Source: Escherichia virus TH15
DNA length: 64,000 bases
Direction: 5' to 3' (one strand)
Sequence record: MT446392.1
Position numbers and translations under genes: made by a program. Each line of letters opens with the position of its first letter. Position 1 is the first letter of the stretch. Below, piece by piece: positions 12,534-59,199 of this stretch. The notes below the pieces were generated by a model. The model did not search any database and was not told where the DNA came from. It saw only the letters and a list, made by a program, of their open reading frames with translations.

Positions 12534-12607
12534 GGCCCTGTAGCTGGACGGTCAAGCGAGCGACTCATAATCGCTGGATGGTGGTTCGATTCCACCCAGG
12601 GCCACCA
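12534..12607 (+). tRNA. tRNA with anticodon CAU (Met, or Ile if lysidine-modified)
   Basis: Hand-folded cloverleaf: acceptor GGCCCTG/CAGGGCC, anticodon stem AGCGA/TCGCT with loop CTCATAA, T-arm GGTGG-TTCGATT-CCACC, encoded CCA. Confidence 0.7.
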
Positions 12608-12741: not shown

Positions 12742-12817
12742 CGAGGCATAGCTCAGAAGGAAGAGCAAGGACCTTCTAAGTCCTAGGTCGTAGGTTCGAT
12801 TCCTACTGTCTCGACCA
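12742..12817 (+). tRNA. tRNA-Arg (anticodon UCU)
   Basis: Hand-folded cloverleaf: acceptor CGAGGCA/TGTCTCG (one G-U), D-arm GCTC/GAGC with GG loop, anticodon loop CTTCTAA, T-arm GTAGG-TTCGATT-CCTAC, encoded CCA. Confidence 0.75.
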
Positions 12818-13194: not shown

Positions 13195-13749
13195 ATGAAA
13201 CTTTTAAAATATCTAAGCTGGATTCTGTTAGTGCCACTGGATTTCATTTCAATGATTCTGGCTGTTATCCTTGCACCATTTGTAGTGCCGTTCCATAACA
13301 AAAAGACTGGTAAGCTTCCGTTCGGATTTGACTGGATGATGACATACGATAATCCAATTGATGGTGACCGTGGTCATGTTAAACGTTGGGAAAAAATCAG
13401 AAAATGGCCGTTAGGTGTTTACTTCCAGCGAGTGGCCTGGCTCTGGCGAAATAAAGCCTACAATTTTGCTTATCATAAGCTGGGTCGCGATTGCGATTCT
13501 AAATTCCATTATAAAGGTAATCCTGATGTTGAATCGGGCTCCCCGGATAAAGCTCACCATGGCTGGCTCTGGATGTGGAATGATAATGCATGGGGCGTGT
13601 TCGCTTCCGTACCTTATCTTAAAGTTGGTGGAATCACCTTTTATCTGCGCGTGTATTGCGGTTGGAAGCTCAAAAGTCTTCTGTCCCGTCCTATCCCGAA
13701 AGCTATGTTAGCCTTTCATATCAATCCCTTCCGTTTTTATAAGAACTAA
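13195..13749 (+). CDS. hypothetical membrane-anchored protein
   Basis: 184 aa; N-terminal hydrophobic segment; SD ctaaggaaa upstream. Confidence 0.5.
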   Translation: MKLLKYLSWILLVPLDFISMILAVILAPFVVPFHNKKTGKLPFGFDWMMTYDNPIDGDRGHVKRWEKIRKWPLGVYFQRVAWLWRNKAYNFAYHKLGRDCDSKFHYKGNPDVESGSPDKAHHGWLWMWNDNAWGVFASVPYLKVGGITFYLRVYCGWKLKSLLSRPIPKAMLAFHINPFRFYKN

Positions 13750-14385: not shown

Positions 14386-14829
14386 ATGAAAACTTCAAAA
14401 CTGGTTAAGTACGTTAAACTGGCATTAAACAACTCTTCTGAAGCTGAAGCGCAATCCGCAGCGCGTATGTTCTTCAAACGTCTGACAGCTGAAGGTATTT
14501 CATTTAACCCGGCAGTATTTGGTATCACTCGTGGCGAAGCTGCTAAACTGGCAACTCTGGCAGGTAAAATTTTTAAAGGTCTGAATGATGGACAGGTTAA
14601 ACCAGAAGTTAAACCTACTCCTAAAGCTGAACCAAAAGCTGAGTGTAAGGCACCTAAACGCTCCGGTATGAGCAACAAAGATTTATGCTATGATATGTTC
14701 AAAACTGTTAATATGTCTAATGGTGCTGCTCGCAGAGCTGTTATTGATATGATTGTGCGTGAGTTTGGATTCAACAAAGCATCAGTTCAATCTTATGCTT
14801 CCAACTTCCGCAAAGAATTTGAAATTTAA
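14386..14829 (+). CDS. hypothetical protein; C-terminal domain shared with the previous gene (...SVQSYASNFRKEFEI)
   Basis: Start placed at Met 18 of ORF 14335..14829 (MKTSKL..., SD gggataa); earlier ATG lies inside the promoter. Confidence 0.5.
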   Translation: MKTSKLVKYVKLALNNSSEAEAQSAARMFFKRLTAEGISFNPAVFGITRGEAAKLATLAGKIFKGLNDGQVKPEVKPTPKAEPKAECKAPKRSGMSNKDLCYDMFKTVNMSNGAARRAVIDMIVREFGFNKASVQSYASNFRKEFEI

Positions 14830-14836
14830 TTCAAAA

Positions 14837-14861
14837 AGGGGGTATACAAGCCCCCTGCTTT
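14837..14861 (+). terminator. hairpin terminator whose loop carries the -35 of the next promoter
   Basis: AGGGGG-TATACAAG-CCCCCT then GCTTT; loop contains GTATAC positioned 18 nt upstream of CATAAT (14866-14871). Confidence 0.5.
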
Positions 14862-14910
14862 AAGGCATAATGATTCCATACTGAGTTACCAAATAAAACT
14901 GGAGAATAAA

Positions 14911-15216
14911 ATGAAATTCATCATCAACCTGGCGCTTGTTGACTTTGATAAAACTGGTAATTTCGCATCTGCTGAAAATATGATTCGCAACACTAAGTTC
15001 AAAGTGCAAGTCCAGCAGGCGGTAGCAAAAGAGTTCTTTACTGATAAATTAACCCACGTTGTCAATCACCTGAATGTGCAAGTTAAATTCACTCGTAAAG
15101 CAGAAACTACAGTTGAATTTGATTTTGAATGTCGTTACCATGATGAATATGTTCGCCGCATCCTTAATATTGTATCTGATGAACTTTACTATGGTGTGCA
15201 GGAAAACAAAATCTAA
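14911..15216 (+). CDS. hypothetical protein
   Basis: 101-aa ORF behind a promoter cassette; SD ctggagaa. Confidence 0.5.
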   Translation: MKFIINLALVDFDKTGNFASAENMIRNTKFKVQVQQAVAKEFFTDKLTHVVNHLNVQVKFTRKAETTVEFDFECRYHDEYVRRILNIVSDELYYGVQENKI

Positions 15217-15220
15217 ATCA

Positions 15221-15256
15221 GTGTACGCTTTAACGGGAACATGATAGTATGTTCCC
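15221..15256 (+). promoter_or_regulatory. early promoter cassette: -35 GTGTAC, -10 TAGTAT bracketed by inverted repeat GGGAACAT/ATGTTCCC
   Basis: 18-nt spacer; 8-bp perfect inverted repeat around the -10. Confidence 0.55.
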
Positions 15257-15292
15257 TGGATAATAAAACATTAACCAACTGAAGGAAATACC

Positions 15293-15886
15293 ATGAATAC
15301 TTTAAAGAAACTTGTTGAATTCATCCGCTCCAAACTGGGTACTGCAATGGCACAAAACCTGTCTATTGAAGACCAATATACTAAAGCGGCAACAACCCTG
15401 ATTGACAAGATTACTGAGCTCCAGACTGCCCACGTTAAGTCTGTTAATGAAGAAAAACGCATCCGCGAGTTAGCGAATGAAAAAGACCAGCTCGCTGCTT
15501 CAAAAGAGCGTGAAATCCGTAAACTGATTGCTGATGGTGCTGATGTTCAGGTCCATGCTAAACTAGGTCTCCTGTATCGCCACACGGCTAAACAACTTCG
15601 TAAGAAGGCAGATGATTATGTTGAAATGCGTAATGAAATTAAATTGAAAGTTAAAGAGCTGGATGATTCTCGTCAGGAACTAGCTGTTAAACTGGAATAC
15701 ATCCGCGAAACTCGTAAGGTATCTGCCCTGGGTATTGCGACTGCAGATGATGTTGTTGAAATCGCTGCATTGACTAAGATTGATATTGAAGACACTCTGA
15801 TGCGTGTTGAAACCTTCAAAGGCCCACAGGTTGGTGTGGATACCACATCCGCTGACATTGAAGAATACATCAATTCACTTAAGTAA
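15293..15886 (+). CDS. hypothetical coiled-coil protein
   Basis: 197 aa, charged and helical composition. Confidence 0.5.
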
Positions 15887-15893
15887 GATAAAA

Positions 15894-15908
15894 GGGGGCT
15901 TTGCCCCC
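15894..15908 (+). terminator. GC-rich hairpin (weak terminator)
   Basis: GGGGGC-TTT-GCCCCC, no clear T-tract. Confidence 0.3.
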
Positions 15909-15929
15909 TAATTGGGAGAGGAGAATATT

Positions 15930-16484
15930 ATGACTTCATACGATAATCTTATATCAAATGTAGAATGGTTTGGCGGCAGTGGTCTTGCCACTGAAACTAA
16001 TACAGTTCTTTATAGAATCCGTGGTGACCTAGGTTATTCCAATGATTTCTTAAGAAGAACAACTAGTCGGGGCGATACTACCAAATTACCTTTTATTTTT
16101 GCTTTGGCTGAAGACCTTTCTTTCGCAGATGCCTTGGAAATTATTGACGTGAATCTGGGCATTCAACGAGTGGAATTCGCTGGACTACGTTATTCAGTGT
16201 ATGCATTAAACGACCCTAGCGATTATAGACAACTTATTGATGCAGACGATGATTATCATTTAGTGTGTTATTTGATGTTAGAAAATGGTGACCACTTTGG
16301 AATGGTTGACCGCCGTCCAACTTACTCTGATATTAAAAATTATGATAAAGATGAGCTTACTATTTTGGCTGCTGAGTATACATCAGAGAGTCGTAAGCAA
16401 CAACGGAAGCTTAATCGTTTTATTACTGAATGTCGTGAATATGCTAAAGGGGTTCAAAATGCGAACGCTATATCTGCCAAGTAA
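15930..16484 (+). CDS. hypothetical protein, C-terminal FITECR motif
   Basis: Start at ATG 15930 (track ORF begins at TTG 15912); SD gagaggag; C-terminal ...NRFITECREYAKG. Confidence 0.5.
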   Translation: MTSYDNLISNVEWFGGSGLATETNTVLYRIRGDLGYSNDFLRRTTSRGDTTKLPFIFALAEDLSFADALEIIDVNLGIQRVEFAGLRYSVYALNDPSDYRQLIDADDDYHLVCYLMLENGDHFGMVDRRPTYSDIKNYDKDELTILAAEYTSESRKQQRKLNRFITECREYAKGVQNANAISAK

Positions 16485-16818
16485 ACCAGAAAAATTTGTA
16501 TACGCGGACAAGATTGATAAAGACCTTATGCCTCCATTTGGAGCTTTGTCCATGTGCATCGTTGGGGTTATAATGATGGTGCTTTGTGGGGATATGGATA
16601 TCATTAGTGTCGGAGTCGCCTGGACACTAATAATCGCAACTCCTTTTATTACAGTCCTGAGTATGATTTTGATAAATGTGTGGCATCAAAATCATATGAA
16701 TAAAGGATATCGTGGACGAGTTAAAGAGTGGGAACAAAAATGTGTTTCCCTACAAAAAGAGCACAAAATTAAATGTGCAGAAGAATTTATCAAGGAGGTT
16801 CGCAATGGAACGGCCTAG
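16459..16818 (+). CDS. small membrane protein, C-terminal FIKEV motif
   Basis: Start at Met 59 of ORF 16285..16818 (MRTLYLP...), overlapping upstream stop; two hydrophobic segments. Confidence 0.45.
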   Translation: MRTLYLPSKPEKFVYADKIDKDLMPPFGALSMCIVGVIMMVLCGDMDIISVGVAWTLIIATPFITVLSMILINVWHQNHMNKGYRGRVKEWEQKCVSLQKEHKIKCAEEFIKEVRNGTA

Positions 16819-21739: not shown

Positions 21740-22495
21740 ATGAATTATCTAAAAATATATGAATCTTTAATAGTATCTGCTATTAAAAGACCTCTTACAC
21801 AAGGATACACCGAAAAACATCATATTTTACCGAAATCGATGGGTGGTAATGATTCTATTGATAATTTAGTTACCCTTACCGCCCGTGAACATTTTATTGC
21901 ACACTTATTATTGGCAAGAATTTTTAAGAATCGCGAAATGTGGTCCGCTGCATATATGATGGCTTCAACAAGTCTAACTAACTCGGATAGACATAGATGC
22001 TCGTCACATTTATATGAATTATTGCGTAAACAAGCGTCGGTATATAATTCAGGTGAAAATTCTCCAAATTGGGGAATAAAACGTTCTGAAGAAACACGAT
22101 TAAAAATGTCAATTTCAAAAATGGGTATCAGGAATCCAATGTACGGTATTCCACAATGTTTGGAACACTCTCATAAAATTAGCCTTGGTGTTACCGAAGC
22201 TTTTAAAAATCCAGAAATGAAAGAACGCCACCGTCAAAGTGTTTCTGGAGAGAATAATGGGTTTTATGGAAAAAAACATTCCGAAAAAAGTTTGGAAAAA
22301 CAGCGGAATACAAAACGGAAAGGATTTCCTTGGGACAATTATTTGGAATTGTACCCAATTTGGGTTTCATTAAATTGCCCCAAGCATCCAACATTCACAA
22401 ATGAACTTGTTAAATTGGGATACCCCAAAAAGAAGCTTGTTCGAATAGTGGAAGAGTTTAAAAATGAATATATTCGAAATGCTACGCATAGATGA
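21740..22495 (+). CDS. HNH homing endonuclease
   Basis: 251 aa; N-terminal [11 protein letters not shown]...[20 protein letters not shown] is the typical HNH core; NUMOD-like basic repeats at the C-terminus; overlaps start of e by 32 nt. Confidence 0.7.
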
Positions 22496-39557: not shown

Positions 39558-40634
39558 ATGCAAGATTATGGCCATTGGTCTGTATTTGAAGAAGTTGACA
39601 TTAAAAATTATATTGGGTTTGTGTACGTGATTACATTTGAAGACGGTCGCAAATATGTTGGTGCTAAAAAGATTTGGAAACGAATCAAAGCAGCTCCATG
39701 CACATTCAAGCGCGGTCCCAAAAAAGGTTTTGAAGAATCTGATTGGAAAACCTACACATCCTCATCAAATGAGTTAAACTCAATTCTGGAAAATGGTATA
39801 AAGCCAAAAGAAATGATTATCATGGGTTGGTATCCAACTTGGGGTAAAACACTTATGGCTGAAATGGAAATGCAACTAGCTAATGATGTTTTGCGAGACC
39901 CAATGTGGCTCAACAAACAGATTGGTGGTCATTTCAACCCCAACTGTTTTGATGATTTGACTCAAGATGATATTGCTCGATGGATTGAATTTGACAAAGG
40001 CAATGAACATGTTAATTGGCCTGTGATGTATAAAATGGGTCAGAAAACTAAATATGTTAAACCTGACGAAGTTGAAAATTATTTGGCGAAGGGTTGGCAG
40101 TTTGGGCGTTCTCGTTCAGAAAAGCATGGAATAATTACCAATTGTTCTTCGTATAAAATTTGGGATTACCAGACTGATACGGAAGTTGAAGTCGTTAACC
40201 AAACCGAGTTCGCGCAAGAAAATGAAATCTCTGCAAGTCATTTAACCAGACTGTTACAGGGTGATTTAGACCTAATTCAGGAACGTTGGGGCTTACCTCC
40301 GACCATTGCACGACAAAGATACAAATTTGCTTTGGCTGATGATAGTGTAAAATTTATATCGAACGCTGATGTTGAACAATATTTTGGTGTTGGTCGCGGT
40401 GGTTGTGCAAAAATATTAAAAGATGGAAAAATTAAAAAGTTGGTCGTGGAAGACAAAAAATCGCATAAAGCAAAACTTGCAACCATGGATTTAGTCAAAA
40501 CAGTTCGACATGAAAAAGTTTCACAAATGGAATTAAACTTTTTCAAAGATATGGTTAATCCGCTATCTCAAACTGAAAGAGATAACTTAACAGTATGGCT
40601 CGAAAGCTATATACAGTATTTAAAAAACAACTGA
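39558..40634 (+). CDS. possible GIY-YIG-type (Seg-like) endonuclease
   Basis: 358 aa; N-terminal YIGFVYVITFEDGRKYVGAKK resembles the GIY-(10 aa)-YIG module; remainder unassigned. Confidence 0.35.
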   Translation: MQDYGHWSVFEEVDIKNYIGFVYVITFEDGRKYVGAKKIWKRIKAAPCTFKRGPKKGFEESDWKTYTSSSNELNSILENGIKPKEMIIMGWYPTWGKTLMAEMEMQLANDVLRDPMWLNKQIGGHFNPNCFDDLTQDDIARWIEFDKGNEHVNWPVMYKMGQKTKYVKPDEVENYLAKGWQFGRSRSEKHGIITNCSSYKIWDYQTDTEVEVVNQTEFAQENEISASHLTRLLQGDLDLIQERWGLPPTIARQRYKFALADDSVKFISNADVEQYFGVGRGGCAKILKDGKIKKLVVEDKKSHKAKLATMDLVKTVRHEKVSQMELNFFKDMVNPLSQTERDNLTVWLESYIQYLKNN

Positions 40635-44244: not shown

Positions 44245-44461
44245 TATTACCGATTTTTTAGATAAAATCGAGGAAGACTTTACAGCGCTCCCATATTTCA
44301 TTAAACTTTATCTGCGAGACATAAAAGGTCTTCCAATTGATATCGACCCTTTAAACGTCCGGAATCTGGAATTTACTTCACCGGATAATAACGTTGATTA
44401 CCGTTATCATGTGGATAATGCTAATCTATATTTTACAATTGAGTTAACTCCCAAGGATTAA
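44228..44461 (+). CDS. hypothetical small protein
   Basis: Start at Met 7 of ORF 44210..44461, overlapping the end of gene 55. Confidence 0.4.
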
Positions 44462-44462
44462 T

Positions 44463-44774
44463 ATGCAAGCTCCAGATATTTCTCAACTGACCGATAAGCA
44501 GATTGAAGAAGCACAGGAACGTCTCGAAGAAGCGAACGCACTCGAAGCTACCAGCCAGGCAGCAAAGATTCTGAAAAAGAATGCTCGTGAAATTGAACGC
44601 CTGAATAAGCATGCTCAAGGGGCAGTGCTGGAAAACAATTTTGAAGCATACAAATATGCTTTAGTTAAACTGCGTGGAATTTACCGCCAACCAGTTACGG
44701 AAGACCTGATTAAGTTGATGTGGGAAACTACTCGCAAGCAAATTTGGGAAATCGTAAATGGCATTAGTAAATAA
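44463..44774 (+). CDS. hypothetical protein
   Basis: 103-aa ORF. Confidence 0.45.
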   Translation: MQAPDISQLTDKQIEEAQERLEEANALEATSQAAKILKKNAREIERLNKHAQGAVLENNFEAYKYALVKLRGIYRQPVTEDLIKLMWETTRKQIWEIVNGISK

Positions 44775-44958
44775 ACCTTTTAAACGGCTTCTTGTTGGAG
44801 CCGCTTTCAGACTTCGCTCATATGGTAATATCTGTATTAAGCAGACTGAAACCGAATACAAAATGATTGGCCAGTATTCTGACGGTATTTTTCAGATTGA
44901 GCCAGTAGCGAAGGTGTGGGTTGATTCACATCAACTTAAGAAATGGTGGCAAAGGTGA
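44758..44958 (+). CDS. hypothetical small protein
   Basis: 66-aa ORF. Confidence 0.4.
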   Translation: MALVNKPFKRLLVGAAFRLRSYGNICIKQTETEYKMIGQYSDGIFQIEPVAKVWVDSHQLKKWWQR

Positions 44959-45214
44959 TAACATGGACGGCGGGCTAATGAAAGACGAACATCCAGATTT
45001 TTAAGAGGTCATATGAATGACGAGTACGAAAAAGTTTAAGAGACTACGTTATGATGAATTCGACGGATTTTGATAAGATTAAATCTGACAAAAATGAGAT
45101 GATGCTTCAATTTGAAGCCGCTCGTATTAAAGCAGAAAATGAAGGTACTATTACCTATAAACCCATCAAGTTCAAGTCTTCTCATGAACCTCTGTATGGT
45201 GTATTAATTGGAAA

Positions 45215-45237
45215 GGAAGCCTAGTGCTTCCTTTTTT
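45215..45237 (+). terminator. rho-independent terminator
   Basis: GGAAGC-CTAGT-GCTTCC followed by TTTTTT. Confidence 0.65.
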
Positions 45238-45264
45238 GCTTTATAGTCGGGATGATAAAATGAA
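45232..45264 (+). promoter_or_regulatory. possible MotA-type middle promoter (TTTGCTTTA box, about 12-nt spacer, TAAAAT)
   Basis: MotA-box-like TGCTTTA overlapping the terminator T-tract, -10-like GATAAAAT downstream. Confidence 0.3.
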
Positions 45265-45281
45265 CCAACTGAGGAGAACAT

Positions 45282-45425
45282 ATGGAATTATTTTTAGGAT
45301 ATGTCGTGTTATTCATGGCATTCTACACATTCACACGAACTTGTTGGATAGGATTCTTTTCTACTCCTGACGGGTTCATCTCATTAATTTTATTTTGCAT
45401 TGCGATAACGGCGCTTGGCTTATGA
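45282..45425 (+). CDS. small hydrophobic peptide (47 aa, below the ORF-track cutoff)
   Basis: Hand-translated MELFLGYVVLFMAFYTF...; strong SD gaggagaa; stop overlaps gene 47 start (ATGA). Confidence 0.4.
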   Translation: MELFLGYVVLFMAFYTFTRTCWIGFFSTPDGFISLILFCIAITALGL

Positions 45426-49755: not shown

Positions 49756-50639
49756 ATTTGATTTATAAAATAACCTTTATAACAAGGGAACAAAATAACG
49801 AATTCCCTTGTTATTATATTGGTTCAAAGGTTGATGCGACATTTAACGGTCAAAATATTCTCGACAAAAATAATAAAATTTATACAGGTTCTCCGAATTC
49901 AAAATACACTAAGCTGTATAATGAATTGATTGATAGAGGTGACTATATTGTTACTATCATTGGAGAAACAAAGCAGGACCCAAGAAAAATAGAAAATATT
50001 TTTCAAATGTCAGTTAAAGCTGTAACCAATGAGAAGTACTTTAATAAAACGTATGCTCACGACCAAAGCCGGTATGATGCTCCTGGATATGCTCCATACC
50101 GAAACTTGAAAACAGGTAAAGTCGTTAAATTGCATCCATCTGAACTTACATCTGATTATGTTGGTGTTCGTAAAGACTGCTCAATTTCGGATAAGCACAT
50201 TCAAGCAATTAAAGACTTTCAAAAAGAATATTGGACTGCCGAAGCTCGACAAGCAAGGTCTATTGAAGTCAAAAATCGTTATAAAGATGCCGAGTATGCT
50301 TTAAAATTCAAAGTTATAATGAATACATCTGAAGTATACGAAAAATATTTAAAATCAATTACTGAATATTGGAATAATTCAGATAATAGAATAAAGGCTT
50401 CAAAACGAGCAACTGAAAGAAATGCTAGTCCTGAGTTTAAAGAAAAATTTAGGAAATCCAAAGCAAGGGGAACCTGGTTGCAGTATGAAGATGAACTTAA
50501 AACATTGTGGAATGCTTTAGGTCAACCGGGGTATATTAAGTTTAGAAAACACGCCATTGAACATGGGTTTAATGATGAAAATTATCAGGGTGCAATCCGG
50601 TCCTGGTCAAATTATTATGTTAATAGGAAAATGAAATGA
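49752..50639 (+). CDS. GIY-YIG homing endonuclease (Seg-like)
   Basis: 295 aa; N-terminal LIYKITFITREQNNEFPCYYIGSK is a GIY-(13 aa)-YIG module; lysine-rich repeats follow. Confidence 0.6.
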   Translation: MNLIYKITFITREQNNEFPCYYIGSKVDATFNGQNILDKNNKIYTGSPNSKYTKLYNELIDRGDYIVTIIGETKQDPRKIENIFQMSVKAVTNEKYFNKTYAHDQSRYDAPGYAPYRNLKTGKVVKLHPSELTSDYVGVRKDCSISDKHIQAIKDFQKEYWTAEARQARSIEVKNRYKDAEYALKFKVIMNTSEVYEKYLKSITEYWNNSDNRIKASKRATERNASPEFKEKFRKSKARGTWLQYEDELKTLWNALGQPGYIKFRKHAIEHGFNDENYQGAIRSWSNYYVNRKMK

Positions 50640-53589: not shown

Positions 53590-55113
53590 ATGCAAGAATT
53601 TTATTTAACTATCGAACAAATCGGTGACAACCTGCTCGAACGGTACATTGACAAGAATGGTCATGAACGTGTTCGTGAAATCCCTTATGCTCCATGCTTG
53701 TTTATGCATGCTCGCGAAGACCAGGCTGCAAAGTATACAGACATCTATAATAAAGGTTGTGTGAAAAAAGAATTCGATTCCATGCGTGATGCATCCCAGT
53801 GGATGAAGCGCATGAACGATATGGGCCTCGAAGCTATGGGTATGGACGATTTCAAACTCGCGTACCTGAGCGACCGTTACCCACATGAAATCAAATACGA
53901 TTCAAGTAAAATCCGTGTGGCTAACTTCGATATCGAGGTGACATCTCCTGATGGGTTCCCTGAGCCGTCTGAAGCACGTCACCCTATCGATGCCCTGACG
54001 CACTATGATTCGGTAGACGATAAATTCTATGTCTTTGACCTTTTGAGCTCGCCATACGCCACTGTGGAGCAATGGTCTATTGATATTGCTGCTAAGCTGC
54101 AGGAAGATGGCGGTGATGAAGTCCCCGAAGAAATCCTGGAAAAAATTGTTTATATGGCTTTCGATTCAGAAGAAGAAATGCTCCAGCAGTATTTGGTATT
54201 CTGGAACGAGAAAACTCCGGTTATGTTAACTGGTTGGAACATCGAGAAATTTGATATTCCGTATATCTACAACCGCATTAAAAATGTATTTGGTGAAGCT
54301 ACGGCCAAACGTCTGAGCCCACATCGTCGTACAAAAGTTAAAGTCATTAACAACGGCTTTGGTGAAGAACAAGAAATCATTCAGATTCTGGGTATCTCTG
54401 TTCTGGATTATCTGGACCTGTACAAAAAGTTCAGCTTCACAAACCAACCGTCTTACTCGTTGGACTATGTTGCGGAATCTGAGCTGGGTGTTGGTAAACT
54501 TCCGTATGATGGCCCGATTTCTAAATTACGTGAATCCAATCACCAGCGATACATCAGCTATAACATCATTGACGTTTATCGTGTTGTGCAGATTGACCGT
54601 AAGCGACAGTTCATTAACCTGAGCCAATCGATGGGTTATTATGCAAAGATGCAGATTCAGTCTGTATTCAGCCCAATCAAAACTTGGGATGCGATTATCT
54701 TTAACAGTCTGAAGACTCAAAACAAGGTTATCCCTGAAACCAAATCACATGTTCGTCAATCGTTCCCTGGTGCATTTGTTAAGGAACCGATTCCGAACGC
54801 ATACAAATATGTAATGAGCTGTGACTTAACATCTCTGTATCCGAGCATCATCCGACAGATTAACATCAGTCCAGAAACGATTGCCGGGTCATTTGCACCA
54901 GCCCAGATGCACGAATACATCGCAGGAACTGCTGACCGTCCATCTGATGCATTTAGTTGTGCGCCAAATGGTATGATGTATTTTAAAGATGTTGCGGGTA
55001 TTATTCCGACAGAAGTTGAGAAAGTTTTTAATCAACGAAAAACCGAAAAGAAAAAGATGTTGGCGGCACAACGTAATAGTGAATTGATTAAAGAAATTTT
55101 ACATGGAAAATAA
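53590..55113 (+). CDS. 43: DNA polymerase gp43, N-terminal segment (exonuclease and N-terminal domains)
   Basis: 507-aa ORF ending in a stop; contains B-family polymerase N-terminal and 3'-5' exonuclease regions (e.g. FDIEV); continues in ORF 55791..56966. Confidence 0.85.
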   Translation: MQEFYLTIEQIGDNLLERYIDKNGHERVREIPYAPCLFMHAREDQAAKYTDIYNKGCVKKEFDSMRDASQWMKRMNDMGLEAMGMDDFKLAYLSDRYPHEIKYDSSKIRVANFDIEVTSPDGFPEPSEARHPIDALTHYDSVDDKFYVFDLLSSPYATVEQWSIDIAAKLQEDGGDEVPEEILEKIVYMAFDSEEEMLQQYLVFWNEKTPVMLTGWNIEKFDIPYIYNRIKNVFGEATAKRLSPHRRTKVKVINNGFGEEQEIIQILGISVLDYLDLYKKFSFTNQPSYSLDYVAESELGVGKLPYDGPISKLRESNHQRYISYNIIDVYRVVQIDRKRQFINLSQSMGYYAKMQIQSVFSPIKTWDAIIFNSLKTQNKVIPETKSHVRQSFPGAFVKEPIPNAYKYVMSCDLTSLYPSIIRQINISPETIAGSFAPAQMHEYIAGTADRPSDAFSCAPNGMMYFKDVAGIIPTEVEKVFNQRKTEKKKMLAAQRNSELIKEILHGK

Positions 55114-55801
55114 ATTGCATTTTGTGTATAAAATTACAAATAACATTAATGGTAAAATTTACATCGGTGTTCACAGCACCGATGATATTAATGATGGATA
55201 TTTGGGCAAAGGTACTTTAATTCAGAAAGCTATTAAAAAATATGGGAAATCTAATTTTAAAAAGGAAATTTTGGAATTTTTCGAGGACCGCACTTCAGCC
55301 TTTGACAAAGAGCGAGAGCTTGTAACCAGAGAATTTGTCAGTTTGACAACAAACTATAATTTAAAAACTGGCGGCGAAGGTGGTGCAATGTATGGTAAAA
55401 CCAATCCGATGTATGGTCGAACATATAGGAAGTCGGAATCAGAGAAGACCCAAATTTCGTTGCGATTTAAAAATGTTCCCAAAACCAACCAGCACAAACA
55501 AAACCTATCCAATTCATTACTCGGTAAACCCAGACCGGACATCGCTGAGAGACAGCGCGGATTGTTACCCTGGAATGTTAATTCTATTCGCAATAACAAA
55601 ACCAGACTAAGAAAATTCGCCGACCTGGATATTATTTTCGATTATTGGTCTAGTCATAAATGTGGTGTTAAAGCATTAGCGAATTGGTATCAACTGGCGA
55701 CGTATAATGAATTAGCATCCGTTATGCGATTCATTAAAAAGTATGGTGACCCGCGACTGAATGGTGATTGGAAAAAATTTAAGGCTGACTATGAATATTG
55801 A
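55103..55801 (+). CDS. GIY-YIG homing endonuclease inserted within gene 43
   Basis: 232 aa; HFVYKITNNINGKIYIGVHS is a GIY-(10 aa)-YIG module; MYGKTNPMYGRT repeats; overlaps both polymerase ORFs by about 11 nt. Confidence 0.75.
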   Translation: MENKLHFVYKITNNINGKIYIGVHSTDDINDGYLGKGTLIQKAIKKYGKSNFKKEILEFFEDRTSAFDKERELVTREFVSLTTNYNLKTGGEGGAMYGKTNPMYGRTYRKSESEKTQISLRFKNVPKTNQHKQNLSNSLLGKPRPDIAERQRGLLPWNVNSIRNNKTRLRKFADLDIIFDYWSSHKCGVKALANWYQLATYNELASVMRFIKKYGDPRLNGDWKKFKADYEY

Positions 55802-56966
55802 TTATAATGCTGATTTTACAGAAGAACAAATCGAATACTTAAAAACTTTGTCTAAAGATGAATTGGAACACCATTTATACAATTCTCAAATGGCTGAAGT
55901 AGCTGCAAACACCGCGCAGATTAACCGTAAACTGCTTATCAATAGCTGTTATGGTGCTCTGGGCAATATCTGGTTCCGTTACTTTGACCTGCGAAATGCA
56001 ACTGCGATTACATCTTTCGGGCAACTTGCATTGCAGTGGATTGAGCGTAAAGTTAACGAATACTTCGATAGTGTTTGTGGTACAAGTGGTGAGACTTACG
56101 TATTCTATGGCGATACTGACTCCATTTATATCCAGTGCGATAACCTGATTAAAAAGGTTGGTGGTGAATCTAAATTCCGCGATACAAACCACCTGGTTGA
56201 CTTCATGGACAAGTTTGCAAAAGACCGTCTGGAACCGGCAATTGATAAAGCTTTCCGTGAACTGGCCGAATACATGAACAATAAACAGCACCTTATGTTT
56301 ATGGACCGTGAAGCGATTGCATGTCCTCCGCTGGGTTCTAAAGGCGTGGGTGGATTCTGGACGGCGAAGAAGCGTTATGCGTTGAACGTGTATGATATGG
56401 AAGGCACACGATATGCTGTTCCGAAACTGAAAATTATGGGTCTGGAAACTCAAAAGTCGAGCACTCCAAAAGCATGTCAGAAAGCTCTGAAAGAATGTAT
56501 CCGTCGCATGCTGCAAGAAGGTGAAGAATCTCTGCAGACATACTTCAAGGAATTCAATAAGGAATTTAATGAGCTTAACTACATGACCATCGCAGGTGTA
56601 TCATCGGTTAACAACATCCAGAAATATAATGAGGGCGGTTTCCCTGGATTTAAGTGCCCGGCTCATATCAAAGGTGTGCTTGCATATATGCGTGCAACTA
56701 AAGGGCTGAAGACTGTTCCGCAAATCATGGAAGGGGAAAAGGTGTATGTGCTTCCTCTTAAAGTTGGTAATCCGTTTGGCGAAACCGTGATTGCGTGGCC
56801 ATCAGGGATTGAACTCCCGATTGAAATTCGTGACCAAGTCTTGCAGTGGATGGACTACAACACACTGTTCCAGAAGACTTTTGTTAAGCCATTGACAGGG
56901 TTCTCTGAAGCAGCTAAGGTTGATTACGAGAAAAAAGCATCTCTTTTTGATATGTTTGATTTTTAA
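55791..56966 (+). CDS. 43: DNA polymerase gp43, C-terminal segment (palm/thumb, motif C YGDTDS)
   Basis: Start at Met 11 of ORF 55761..56966; INSCYGALGN and YGDTDSIY polymerase motifs. Confidence 0.85.
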   Translation: MNIDYNADFTEEQIEYLKTLSKDELEHHLYNSQMAEVAANTAQINRKLLINSCYGALGNIWFRYFDLRNATAITSFGQLALQWIERKVNEYFDSVCGTSGETYVFYGDTDSIYIQCDNLIKKVGGESKFRDTNHLVDFMDKFAKDRLEPAIDKAFRELAEYMNNKQHLMFMDREAIACPPLGSKGVGGFWTAKKRYALNVYDMEGTRYAVPKLKIMGLETQKSSTPKACQKALKECIRRMLQEGEESLQTYFKEFNKEFNELNYMTIAGVSSVNNIQKYNEGGFPGFKCPAHIKGVLAYMRATKGLKTVPQIMEGEKVYVLPLKVGNPFGETVIAWPSGIELPIEIRDQVLQWMDYNTLFQKTFVKPLTGFSEAAKVDYEKKASLFDMFDF

Positions 56967-57038
56967 GTGTTTACAATGGCAAAGGATTGCCGTATGATTA
57001 CTCCATCAATTACTGATGATTAACTTAAGGATATTAAA

Positions 57039-57281
57039 ATGGAAACATTAATTGCGGGTACTGTTGTTCTTGGTGCTGGTTCTTTCTTCTTGGCTGCACT
57101 GACCTATTTTCTACCGTGGATTATCGCGCTACTGCGTGGAACCAAAAGTAATTGCGGAATCTTCTTTGTTAACCTTCTGTTAGGTTGGACAATGGTTGGG
57201 TGGTTTATTGCGTTTATTTGGGCACTCGTTGCTGAACGTAAATCAAACGCACAGTTAATTATCATCAAGGAAACCAAATGA
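57039..57281 (+). CDS. imm: superinfection immunity membrane protein Imm
   Basis: 80 aa with two TM helices, downstream of gene 43 as in T4. Confidence 0.6.
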   Translation: METLIAGTVVLGAGSFFLAALTYFLPWIIALLRGTKSNCGIFFVNLLLGWTMVGWFIAFIWALVAERKSNAQLIIIKETK

Positions 57282-57421
57282 AGATAATTACAATTATTGT
57301 ACTGATTGCATTTTTTAGTATGTCAATCTATTGGGCAATAATGACTCCGCATATGATTCCAACTTTAATTTTGGGTTGGATATTTTTGGGACTCCAAGCC
57401 CGTTATGAATGTTTTAATTGA
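57278..57421 (+). CDS. small hydrophobic peptide (47 aa, imm.1-like by position)
   Basis: Hand-translated MKIITIIVLIAFFSMSIYWAIM...; ATGA overlap with imm. Confidence 0.4.
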   Translation: MKIITIIVLIAFFSMSIYWAIMTPHMIPTLILGWIFLGLQARYECFN

Positions 57422-57431
57422 GGAAAATACA

Positions 57432-57935
57432 ATGAAAAAGTTAGCTATCGCAGCTGTTATGCTGCTATCTGGTTGTGCTTACCAGGGTGATGTAGTTAAT
57501 GTCAGTGAAATTGGTAAAGCGCGAATTGCTGCAGACCGTCAGGTGCATAATGGTTCCTTTGATTTCAAAGGTGGTACTGGGCTTATCTACAAACGCGACA
57601 ATAGTCAGTGTGGAAATAACTGCGCGAAATATGCTCAACAAGAAATTGAGTACAAACGCGAGCAAGCTGCGAAGCATGATGAAGTAATCGCTAAATTAGA
57701 AGCAGAAACTAAGCGACAAAATGACTTGGATACTGTTAACCAGATTTCACAGGTCTGCATGTCTTACATCAATATGCAGATAAACATCATGCGCGCGGAA
57801 GCTTATCAGGCAGCGGAGACTGGTTCTCCAAAAGCCAATGAGTATCGCGATATGTATCAGCGTTCTGCTCAAAATCGTCTGAGCTATATTAATAAATGTG
57901 TGGCTAAAGAGAAAGCCCGCCAAGGTATTAACTAA
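57432..57935 (+). CDS. lipoprotein (candidate superinfection-exclusion factor)
   Basis: Start at Met 10 of ORF 57405..57935; signal peptide plus lipobox LLSGC; occupies the interval where T4 has genes 42 and beta-gt. Confidence 0.5.
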   Translation: MKKLAIAAVMLLSGCAYQGDVVNVSEIGKARIAADRQVHNGSFDFKGGTGLIYKRDNSQCGNNCAKYAQQEIEYKREQAAKHDEVIAKLEAETKRQNDLDTVNQISQVCMSYINMQINIMRAEAYQAAETGSPKANEYRDMYQRSAQNRLSYINKCVAKEKARQGIN

Positions 57936-57942
57936 CATTAAT

Positions 57943-57969
57943 TGCTCTAAAAATACAGTGATATAATTA
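57943..57969 (+). promoter_or_regulatory. possible MotA-type middle promoter upstream of uvsX
   Basis: MotA-box-like TTGCTCTA, about 13 nt, then TATAAT (57964-57969). Confidence 0.3.
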
Positions 57970-58020
57970 TCCTATCTTAAACCTGTGAGAAAAATATAAT
58001 GGTGCCTATGGAAAAAATGA

Positions 58021-59199
58021 ATGTCTATTGCAGATTTGAAATCCCGTTTGATTAAAGCTTCTACATCCAAAATGACCGCGACTCTTACCAAGTCCAAGTT
58101 TTTTAATGATAAAGATGTAGTTCGTACAAAAATCCCGATGCTGAACATTGCAATCAGCGGTGCACTAGATGGTGGTATGCAGTCAGGTTTGACTATTTTT
58201 GCTGGTCCGTCAAAACACTTTAAATCCAATATGGGTTTAACGATGGTCTCTGCATATATGAACAAATACCCCGAAGCAATCTGTTTGTTCTATGATTCAG
58301 AATTTGGTATCACAGAAGCCTATCTGCGTGCAATGAAAGTAGACCCGGAACGTGTTATTCATACACCAATCCAGTCGGTTGAACAATTGAAAGTTGATAT
58401 GGTTAACCAGCTTGAAGCAATTGAGCGTGGTGAAAAAGTCATTATCTTTATTGACTCAATCGGTAACATGGCGTCGAAAAAAGAAACAGAAGATGCGATG
58501 AACGAAAAAGTCGTTGGTGATATGACTCGCGCTAAATCCCTGAAATCTCTGTTCCGTATTGTTACCCCATATTTTAGTATCAAGGATATTCCTTGTGTCG
58601 CGGTTAACCATACAATTGAGACGATTGAGATGTATAGCAAAACCGTTATGACCGGTGGTACAGGTGTTATGTATTCTGCGGACACCGTATTCATTATCGG
58701 CAAACGCCAGATTAAAGAAACCGGTAAAGAGCTTGAAGGTTTCCAATTTGTACTGAACGCCGAAAAATCTCGTATGGTCAAAGAGAAAAGTAAATTCTTC
58801 ATTGATGTAAAATTCGATGGTGGTATTGACCCGTATTCTGGCCTGCTTGATATGGCAATGGAAATTGGATTTGTGGTGAAGCCGAAAGTTGGTTGGTATA
58901 ACCGTGAATATCTTGATGTTGAGACCGGTGAAATGGTCCGCGAAGAAAAATCATGGCGAGCAAAAGATACTAACTGCACTGAATTCTGGGGCCCGCTGTT
59001 CAAGCACGAACCTTTCCGTGATGCAATCAAACGTCATTACCAACTGGGTGCAATCGATAGCAATGCTGTTGTTGATGCCGAAGTTGATGAGCTTATTAGT
59101 TCGAAAGTTGAAAAATACTCTGCACCAGAAGGCAAATCAAAACCATCTGCGGCAGACATCGAAAACGATTTAGATATGATGGAAGACCTTGATGAGTGA
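58021..59199 (+). CDS. uvsX: recombinase UvsX (RecA-like)
   Basis: 392 aa; ...LKSRLIKASTSKMTA...KIPMLNIAISGALDGGMQSGLTIFAGPSKHFKSN... closely parallels T4 UvsX. Confidence 0.9.
   Translation: MSIADLKSRLIKASTSKMTATLTKSKFFNDKDVVRTKIPMLNIAISGALDGGMQSGLTIFAGPSKHFKSNMGLTMVSAYMNKYPEAICLFYDSEFGITEAYLRAMKVDPERVIHTPIQSVEQLKVDMVNQLEAIERGEKVIIFIDSIGNMASKKETEDAMNEKVVGDMTRAKSLKSLFRIVTPYFSIKDIPCVAVNHTIETIEMYSKTVMTGGTGVMYSADTVFIIGKRQIKETGKELEGFQFVLNAEKSRMVKEKSKFFIDVKFDGGIDPYSGLLDMAMEIGFVVKPKVGWYNREYLDVETGEMVREEKSWRAKDTNCTEFWGPLFKHEPFRDAIKRHYQLGAIDSNAVVDAEVDELISSKVEKYSAPEGKSKPSAADIENDLDMMEDLDE

Follow-up and report, generated by a model that had tools for sequence, protein, structure and literature searches.

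An aspartate-177 thymidylate synthase in relatives of coliphage TH15 as a candidate route to cytosine replacement, and an imm-uvsX interval without a DNA-modification cassette

We have analyzed a 64-kb stretch of the genome of Escherichia virus TH15 (record MT446392.1; hereafter the window), a T4-like coliphage of the genus Gaprivervirus, and in particular the interval between the superinfection-immunity gene imm and the recombinase gene uvsX. This region encodes three envelope proteins (Imm, a 47-residue hydrophobic peptide, and a 167-residue predicted lipoprotein) and is free of the DNA-modification cassettes that other T-even phages carry there, and the close relatives of TH15 encode a thymidylate synthase (TS), Td, with an aspartate at the residue that selects the pyrimidine substrate. 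The explanation that we favor, with a probability of roughly 70%, is that the locus is a conserved three-gene envelope cluster from which the cassette is absent, that cytosine is replaced by way of Td, and that the lipoprotein acts together with Imm. The arrangement of the locus is already known, and the lipoprotein falls in a class that is widespread in the T4 family and uncharacterized; the new element is the lead provided by Asp177 of Td.

Results and Discussion

Absence of the T4 genes for glucosylated hydroxymethylcytosine

The window is 97% identical to phage ECML-359 and is collinear throughout with VR7 (positions 79862-17489), and its imm-uvsX region is 92-97% identical to those of the Gaprivervirus members ECML-359, VR7, VR20, VR26, and SP18. 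VR7 annotation names the three genes imm, 42.1, and VR7ORF049c. An original prediction made from the letters of the window held that T4 has gene 42, encoding deoxycytidine monophosphate (dCMP) hydroxymethylase, and the beta-glucosyltransferase gene b-gt in this interval and that TH15 has neither, and both statements are borne out. The T4 sequence (AF158101) reads 43 - imm.1 - imm - (47-residue open reading frame) - 42 - b-gt - segA - uvsX, and tblastn of T4 gp42, beta-glucosyltransferase, alpha-glucosyltransferase, gp56, and Dam against the whole 64-kb window gives nothing better than E ~1. The map of open reading frames (ORFs) also agrees that only the 47-residue peptide and the lipoprotein lie between imm and uvsX, and that the alpha-glucosyltransferase gene is missing from the 55-47 interval of the window, where there are only small ORFs resembling a-gt.2 to a-gt.5 (Table 1).

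The same tblastn search of the complete VR7 genome found no match to T4 gp42, beta-glucosyltransferase, alpha-glucosyltransferase, or Dam. A genome-wide search for genes 42 and 56 and the glucosyltransferases had been proposed, and for the window and VR7 its outcome is that gene 42 and the glucosyltransferase genes are absent from both and gp56 is present in VR7 only. Because gp42 and the two glucosyltransferases were found in neither sequence, TH15 is predicted not to use the T4 route to glucosylated hydroxymethylcytosine. That the genus has no gp42 has been published before and is not new here.

The remainder of the T4 pathway is retained in the relatives of TH15. The VR7 gp56 dCTPase is 76% identical to T4 gp56, and the VR7 annotation includes alc, denA, denB, cd, td, frd, and gene 1; the relatives thus resemble T4 in keeping gp56, gene 1, alc, denA, and denB, but differ from it in that neither the window nor the entire VR7 genome encodes gp42 or either glucosyltransferase. 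In T4, genetics shows that such a combination of genes is lethal to a phage with no source of modified dCTP. The paradox posed by the absence of gp42 from Gaprivervirus has already been raised by papers of 2021 and 2025, the former (PMC8056088) pointing out that the genus has no known base-synthesis enzyme yet has all four functions directed against cytosine-containing DNA, and that it 'may have an unknown protein'.

Restriction analysis of virion DNA bears on the same question. In digests with and without T4 beta-glucosyltransferase, Gordeeva et al. (PMC6326788, supplementary Fig. S4) report VR5 and T4 as glycosylated and T4147 as hydroxymethylated, and state that 'VR7 has modified cytosines'; in the same study BREX restricts VR7, which is unglycosylated, completely. 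VR5 is a Dhakavirus with a cassette of the JS98 type (see below), which fits its reported glycosylation. Because the relatives keep gp56 and annotated Alc and DenB, and because VR7 DNA is reported to be modified but unglycosylated, TH15 very likely still replaces its cytosine. The claim that the phage does not make glucosylated hydroxymethylcytosine therefore stands as regards the T4-route genes, absent from the window and VR7, but the plain cytosine that it implied is improbable in view of VR7 gp56, alc, denB, and the modified cytosines.

Were TH15 DNA to contain ordinary unmodified cytosine, the cassette would have been lost without replacement, gp56 would serve chiefly as a dUTPase, and the specificity of Alc and DenB would have drifted. 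Neither the window nor VR7 has a known cytosine-modifying enzyme recognizable by homology, and the T4-like genera Krischvirus and Pseudotevenvirus do live with unmodified cytosine DNA (PMC12115623, Table 4). However, alc and denB are missing from those genera and present, along with dCTPase and denA, in Gaprivervirus; the modified cytosines reported in VR7 DNA and the dCMP-selecting Asp177 of Gaprivervirus Td also speak against this possibility, and we consider it very unlikely.

The VR7 annotation shows no dam between genes 56 and 61 (HM563683 16310-16795), and lists arn.1 to arn.4 with no arn (HM563683 160192-161707). The relatives of TH15 thus seem to lack the T4 adenine methylase and anti-McrBC protein, which bears on how a genome containing 5-methylcytosine or 5-hydroxymethylcytosine would survive McrBC.

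Td as a candidate dCMP methylase

VR7 has a single TS-family gene, annotated td (HM563683 142489-143349), whose product reads YQRSVDVFLGLPFDIGSY where Escherichia coli ThyA has DVFLGLPFNIASY. The difference falls on the residue that determines substrate choice: in TS, Asn177 (E. coli numbering) selects deoxyuridine monophosphate (dUMP), and Asp177 selects dCMP and yields 5-methyl-dCMP (PMC8670742). We compared Td proteins across the 120 best Td clusters recovered from a search of 5.8 billion proteins. All four clusters of the Gaprivervirus type have the Asp form, DVFLGLPFDIGSY; their identities are 98% (SP18-type), 85-86% (two metagenomic clusters), and 85% (Yersinia phage P8-type). Of the other 116 clusters, 115, at most 69% identical and from Tequatrovirus and Dhakavirus (Bp7), have Asn, as in DVFLGLPFNIASY, and one fell outside the search pattern. 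Changes specific to the Gaprivervirus clade include N177D, A179G, A182G, F149L, and T47V, and both C146 and H147 are kept. In the relatives, then, a TS of otherwise canonical type has aspartate at the residue corresponding to ThyA 177, td being outside the window.

Td with Asp177 would make a modified dCMP: acting as a dCMP methylase, it would give rise to DNA containing 5-methylcytosine, and dTMP could be supplied by host ThyA or by deamination of 5-methyl-dCMP by the dCMP deaminase Cd. The suggestion that the missing functions are encoded elsewhere is probably correct in this unexpected sense, by way of the Asp177 Td of the relatives. Our literature search found no paper linking Gaprivervirus Td to cytosine modification.

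Comparable enzymes are the engineered TS variants N177D (E. coli) and N229D (Lactobacillus casei) and the dCMP methyltransferase of Xanthomonas phage XP12. All share with Gaprivervirus Td an Asp at the residue that selects the pyrimidine, in a TS that is canonical in other respects, and a predicted product, 5-methyl-dCMP, that would replace cytosine wholesale. They differ in that the Gaprivervirus change is natural, has become fixed throughout a T-even genus and occurs separately in Acinetobacter phage 133, and is accompanied by A179G and A182G in a T4-type background of gp56, Alc, and DenB, with its activity predicted.

Phage 133 provides a second case, since PMC8056088 groups it with Gaprivervirus as a phage without a base-synthesis enzyme. 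Its Td (NC_015250 140516-141463) reads DVFLGKPFDIASY, with Asp at the equivalent of position 177, and is 45% identical to VR7 Td. Phage 133 has gp56 (59% identical to that of T4) and an annotated alc, and a search of 99 kb of its early regions, with the ~61 kb of structural and late regions lying outside the search, gave no gp42 and no gene like JS98 orf39. Asp177 in Td therefore predicts a natural dCMP methylase in just those T4-like phages where gp42 was not found.

A different outcome would be that the base is 5-hydroxymethylcytosine or some other derivative, made either by the Asp177 Td acting as a hydroxymethylase or by an unrecognized enzyme outside the TS family encoded elsewhere. T4 gp42 likewise has Asp at the equivalent of position 177, which we count in favor of a hydroxymethylase. 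Both papers that raised the paradox (2021 and 2025) invoke an 'unknown protein', and several Gaprivervirus ORFs have no assigned function. However, Gaprivervirus Td shares 65-69% identity with the bona fide Td proteins of T-even phages and keeps C146, H147, and the C-terminus; the adjacent frd gene (dihydrofolate reductase), needed by a methylase but not by a hydroxymethylase, is also kept; and after the beta-glucosyltransferase test Gordeeva et al. call T4147 'hydroxymethylated' but VR7 only 'modified'.

The ORFs specific to VR7 or to the window, which are homing endonucleases and DUF proteins, offer no candidate enzyme. The VR7-specific or poorly annotated ORFs 006c, 134c, 135c, 136c, 147c, 148c, 149c, 232c, 239c, and 292c include no candidate modifying enzyme, the recognizable products among these and the insertions in the window being homing endonucleases of the HNH, GIY-YIG, and AP2 types and DUF7275, DUF7277, and DUF7338 proteins, and the rest having no match. 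VR7 ORF147c, described as 'deaminase-like', has no Pfam deaminase domain and was set aside as a candidate. Methylation is favored over hydroxymethylation because the canonical TS architecture and the adjacent frd are retained, and we regard 5-hydroxymethylcytosine or another base as somewhat unlikely.

Several observations weigh against the methylase proposal. The genes td, gp56, alc, and denB lie outside the 64-kb window, and their state in TH15 is deduced from relatives at 85-98% identity; Asp177 also occurs in hydroxymethylases, so that 5-hydroxymethylcytosine would be compatible with Gaprivervirus Td; and a gene 42 allele is credited to phage 133 by Petrov et al. 2010 (PMC2993671, Table 4), in conflict with both the 2021 paper and our partial search. 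We place at about even odds the specific proposal that the Gapriverviruses, TH15 included, have shed the gp42-type cassette from the imm-uvsX interval and replace cytosine with 5-methylcytosine through a Td carrying N177D (together with A179G and A182G), and that the same switch has arisen independently in phage 133. If so, the identity of the non-canonical base of this genus, asked about in 2021 and 2025, would be explained.

The imm-uvsX interval among the Tevenvirinae

The window Imm is securely assigned as a T4 Imm-type small protein with two transmembrane segments, encoded beside gene 43: it matches Pfam PF14373 (Imm_superinfect) with an E-value of 7.6e-18 (64.6 bits; cutoff 27.9), and shares 51% identity with T4 Imm over 83 residues and 68% with JS98 Imm. 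The 47-residue peptide matches phrog_3610 over its full length (positions 1-47 of 47; E 1.2e-26), and a T4 ORF of 49 residues in the gap between 42 and imm (AF158101 26220-26372, minus strand), unannotated in that record, matches the same family (E 1.2e-25). Homologues of 47-49 residues are found in T4, JS98, VR5, CHI14, PEi20, Kosakonia 305, JK45, and WFL6982, and both length and sequence are kept in at least six Tevenvirinae genera, with the motif ..TIYW...P.MIPTL..GW...LQAKY.CFN. It is probably a conserved membrane peptide with two membrane segments. The JS98 annotation gives a shortened, 36-residue form of it.

The three genes are closely packed. The imm stop codon is overlapped by the ATG of the 47-residue ORF, and the next gap, to the lipoprotein ORF, is 10 nt, with a GAGGA Shine-Dalgarno sequence 7 nt upstream of the lipoprotein start. 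Together imm and the peptide and lipoprotein genes would form a compact early operon of three envelope proteins that are probably co-transcribed. Across the Tevenvirinae this set of genes is found next to gene 43.

The gene content between gene 43 and uvsX varies considerably among other genera. JS98 and VR5 have the order 43 - imm - 47-residue peptide - lipoprotein - five-gene cassette - uvsX, the cassette being ~4.2 kb; CHI14, PEi20, and Kosakonia 305 have 43 - lipoprotein - arabinose-5-phosphate isomerase - 47-residue peptide - more cassette genes; and JK45 and WFL6982 have another, different cassette in the same interval. Across these relatives the cassettes contain arabinose-5-phosphate isomerase, GlmU-like, phosphoheptose-isomerase-like, and thymidylate-kinase-like genes, as well as a divergent TS-like 'dCMP hydroxymethylase' that is ~25% identical to T4 gp42. 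A sugar-nucleotide and TS-like cassette is present in JS98, VR5, RB69-like phages, CHI14, and PEi20, and 42 with b-gt in T4. Because different cassettes occupy the same place across genera, the 43/imm-uvsX segment is a hot spot for the exchange of DNA-modification cassettes, in which the lipoprotein and peptide genes are the stable frame. Gaprivervirus has no cassette, and the lipoprotein gene therefore abuts uvsX, with only 85 bp from its stop codon to the uvsX start.

The nearest parallels show both what is shared and what has changed. The T4 region has the same flanking genes, a recognizable Imm, and the conserved 47-residue peptide, and both phages have a phrog_1754 lipoprotein with the motif GC-x-QG-x-VV-N-x-S-x-VGK following the lipobox. 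It differs in that the T4 lipoprotein, Imm.1, is encoded upstream of imm and has 125 residues, whereas that of the window is encoded downstream and has 167; in that Imm.1 belongs to Pfam DUF5481, and the window protein lies outside this family and shows similarity to Imm.1 only as far as about residue 30 by hhalign; and in the presence in T4 of 42, b-gt, and segA, none of which the window has. The Dhakaviruses JS98 and VR5 have an order identical to that of the window from 43 through the lipoprotein, a lipoprotein 50-54% identical to that of the window, and a conserved uvsX upstream region, but carry five additional genes after the lipoprotein and before uvsX, among them the divergent TS-like, thymidylate-kinase-like, and phosphoheptose-isomerase-like genes. 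None of the five has a homologue in the window or VR7, JS98 orf38-42 giving no match there at E <= 0.1 except for one chance-level alignment of 52 residues.

The sequence before uvsX has features of its own. The uvsX-proximal 75 bp of the spacer in the window align with the JS98 uvsX upstream sequence. Both VR7 and JS98 have an additional, unannotated membrane ORF of ~42 codons just upstream of the uvsX promoter region (MIGMLLISLWLLSAFGIGFMYWWDKRQTRKIVERAINRGFNR in VR7) that is absent from the window. The window is shorter by ~156 bp at this point, and the boundaries of the segment in VR7 are a short direct repeat, TTAATT(T/G)CT(C)TAAA; two-piece matches indicate the longer form of the spacer in several other Gapriverviruses. 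The JS98 sequence 3' of the lipoprotein gene weakly resembles the uvsX upstream region. There are hints here of repeated promoter cassettes that may mediate the gain and loss of modification cassettes.

The 167-residue predicted lipoprotein

The protein begins MKKLAIAAVMLLSGC, a signal peptide ending in the lipobox LSGC with Cys15 as the predicted lipidated residue and Ala at position +2, in agreement with the bacterial lipoprotein pattern [LVI][ASTVI][GAS]C; L12, G14, and C15 are invariant in alignments of the family. The mechanically called ORF begins at 57405, and we took the 167-residue form (start at 57432) as annotated in relatives. The Ala at +2 suggests Lol-dependent sorting to the outer membrane. 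Besides C15 of the lipobox, three cysteines (C60, C109, and C156) do not vary across the aligned family, and the long-form members also share invariant G48, G50, Y53, R55, Q59, and a CGxNC motif. This pattern fits an exported, disulfide-bonded protein.

The family is confined to T4-like phages among the records searched. Homologues were found by tblastn in 121 phage records, all T4-like, with identities of 95-99% in Gaprivervirus, 48-53% in Dhakavirus (JS98, JS10, Bp7, VR5), and 28-41% in Kanagawavirus, Winklervirus, and phages of Enterobacter, Erwinia, and Pectobacterium. Searches of the 5.8 billion proteins gave seven and then 21 homologues, all from phage-sized or short contigs. The window protein matches phrog_1754 at positions 2-147 of 148 (E 5e-46), and T4 Imm.1 matches the same family at positions 2-146 of 148 (E 6e-43). 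The original prediction had the lipoprotein occupying the interval instead of the modification genes, but it shares phrog_1754 with T4 Imm.1 and has a homologue alongside the cassettes of JS98, VR5, CHI14, PEi20, and Kosakonia 305; because such homologues coexist with modification cassettes in the same interval, the lipoprotein is not a replacement for them.

Our best guess as to function is a tentative one: from the operon structure and conserved linkage only, the lipoprotein may face the periplasm and work with Imm in envelope protection or superinfection exclusion. Exported and lipid-anchored, it would act in the periplasm together with Imm. The exclusion role originally suggested for it is plausible from its context beside imm, and our literature search found no paper on the function of T4 imm.1.

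A number of results count against reading too much into these relationships. The hhalign comparison of the lipoprotein with T4 Imm.1 gives a probability of 96.5% but covers only 30 columns, namely the signal peptide and ~15 further residues with the motif QGxVVNxSxVGK, and the lipoprotein has no match to Pfam DUF5481 (PF17578) at E <= 0.1, where T4 Imm.1 scores 239 bits. An AlphaFold2 model built from a 20-sequence alignment is of moderate quality (predicted local distance difference test score 70.9, predicted template modeling score 0.44), and Foldseek finds only generic helical hairpins in PDB (E >= 2) and only members of the same family in BFVD. BLASTP similarly aligns residues 3-29 only with T4 Imm.1; each of the two proteins has four cysteines after the lipobox cysteine. 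We conclude that the kinship between them appears real but limited in extent. In the model, residues 1-38 form a disordered tether and residues 41-55 a beta-hairpin; a long helix spans residues 62-130, and the C-terminal part is a helical hairpin modeled with confidence.

Against Pfam, NCBIfam, and PADLOC, the three proteins gave nothing significant except for Imm. Weak matches to FerB, DUF553, a type VI secretion immunity-lipoprotein model, and Cor were below threshold or confined to the signal peptide and were discarded. The match to Cor deserves comment since the lipoprotein gene adjoins imm, and a Cor/Llp-type exclusion factor that masks the receptor, acquired as a moron in place of the modification genes, would be in keeping with both the position and the match (phrog_1119, E 0.026). 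However, this sole match spans residues 10-26 only, which is the signal peptide, and a receptor-masking role is therefore unsupported; Foldseek gives no PDB match at E < 1 and only family members in BFVD, and PADLOC and NCBIfam report nothing significant. Nor is the lipoprotein a recent acquisition, having the same neighborhood in at least five Tevenvirinae genera, alongside modification cassettes. We judge a Cor/Llp-type factor to be unlikely, and return to a periplasmic partner of Imm as a tentative assignment.

Other features of the window

The features of the region and their coordinates are given in Table 1. The DNA polymerase gene, 43, is in two parts, 43N and 43C, separated by a free-standing homing-endonuclease gene, and 43C restarts in an overlap with the endonuclease stop codon. 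The break is in the region of a variable linker in VR7 gp43. This insertion was found in none of 50,697 phage records. A group I intron was discarded as the cause of the split, since Rfam gives no matches in the window other than two tRNAs. A divided gene 43 (43A/43B) is present in phage 133 as well, and a two-piece polymerase is therefore of a known kind. The VR7 annotation has tRNA-Met only.

Megablast finds no counterpart in VR7 for five segments of the window (21740-22495, 39558-40634, 50007-50639, 13195-13749, and 14575-16491). Their products, in this order, are an HNH-NUMOD3 endonuclease, a SegE-type GIY-YIG endonuclease, a protein of 210 residues with no assignment, a membrane protein of the DUF7338 type, and those of three ORFs that match no family, one of them a 197-residue coiled-coil protein; these VR7-unmatched insertions consist of homing endonucleases and DUF proteins and include no modification enzymes. 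VR7 ORF135c, which resembles a homing endonuclease, is missing from the window.

Table 1. Features of the TH15 window discussed in the text.
Feature	Coordinates	Strand	Basis or remarks
tRNA-Met(CAT) gene	12534-12607		
tRNA-Arg(TCT) gene	12742-12817		
55-47 interval, small ORFs like a-gt.2 to a-gt.5 only	44245-45394	+	No alpha-glucosyltransferase gene
DNA polymerase gene 43, in two parts	53590-56966	+	43N and 43C with endonuclease gene between
43N	53590-55113	+	Ends ...ELIKEILHGK, then stop
Free-standing GIY-YIG (SegA/SegE-like) homing-endonuclease gene	55103-55801	+	Separates 43N and 43C
43C	about 55791-56966	+	Restarts MNIDYNADF, overlapping endonuclease stop codon
Promoter-like site upstream of imm, sigma-70/T4-early type (TTTACA, 17 nt, TATGAT)	56970-56998	+	Consensus match only, 10/12 positions
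imm, superinfection-immunity inner-membrane protein, 80 residues	57039-57281	+	Pfam PF14373, phrog_1039, identity to T4 and JS98
47-residue hydrophobic peptide, 'gp42.1'-like, phrog_3610	57278-57421	+	PHROG profile, homologues
167-residue predicted lipoprotein	57432-57935	+	phrog_1754; lipobox
85-bp spacer with conserved uvsX upstream region	57936-58020	+	Alignments with VR7 and JS98
uvsX recombinase	58021-59199	+	Pfam T4_UVSX_C (E 3.5e-39) and RecA

Conclusions

The imm-uvsX locus of TH15 is unremarkable in itself: the cluster of envelope genes is conserved among T-even phages, and the genus is already known to have neither gp42 nor the glucosyltransferases. The 47-residue peptide and the Imm.1-class lipoprotein, both widely conserved and uncharacterized, are sensible targets for studies of superinfection immunity. 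Gapriverviruses have been isolated for phage therapy, and recent reviews note that transduction risk and restriction evasion cannot be assessed while the DNA base is unknown. The Asp177 Td offers a concrete and testable hypothesis for that base, namely DNA containing 5-methyldeoxycytidine, and Asp177 is a sequence marker by which this switch can easily be recognized in other phages of the T4 type. If true, this would be a second, previously unrecognized route to cytosine replacement within the T-even phages.

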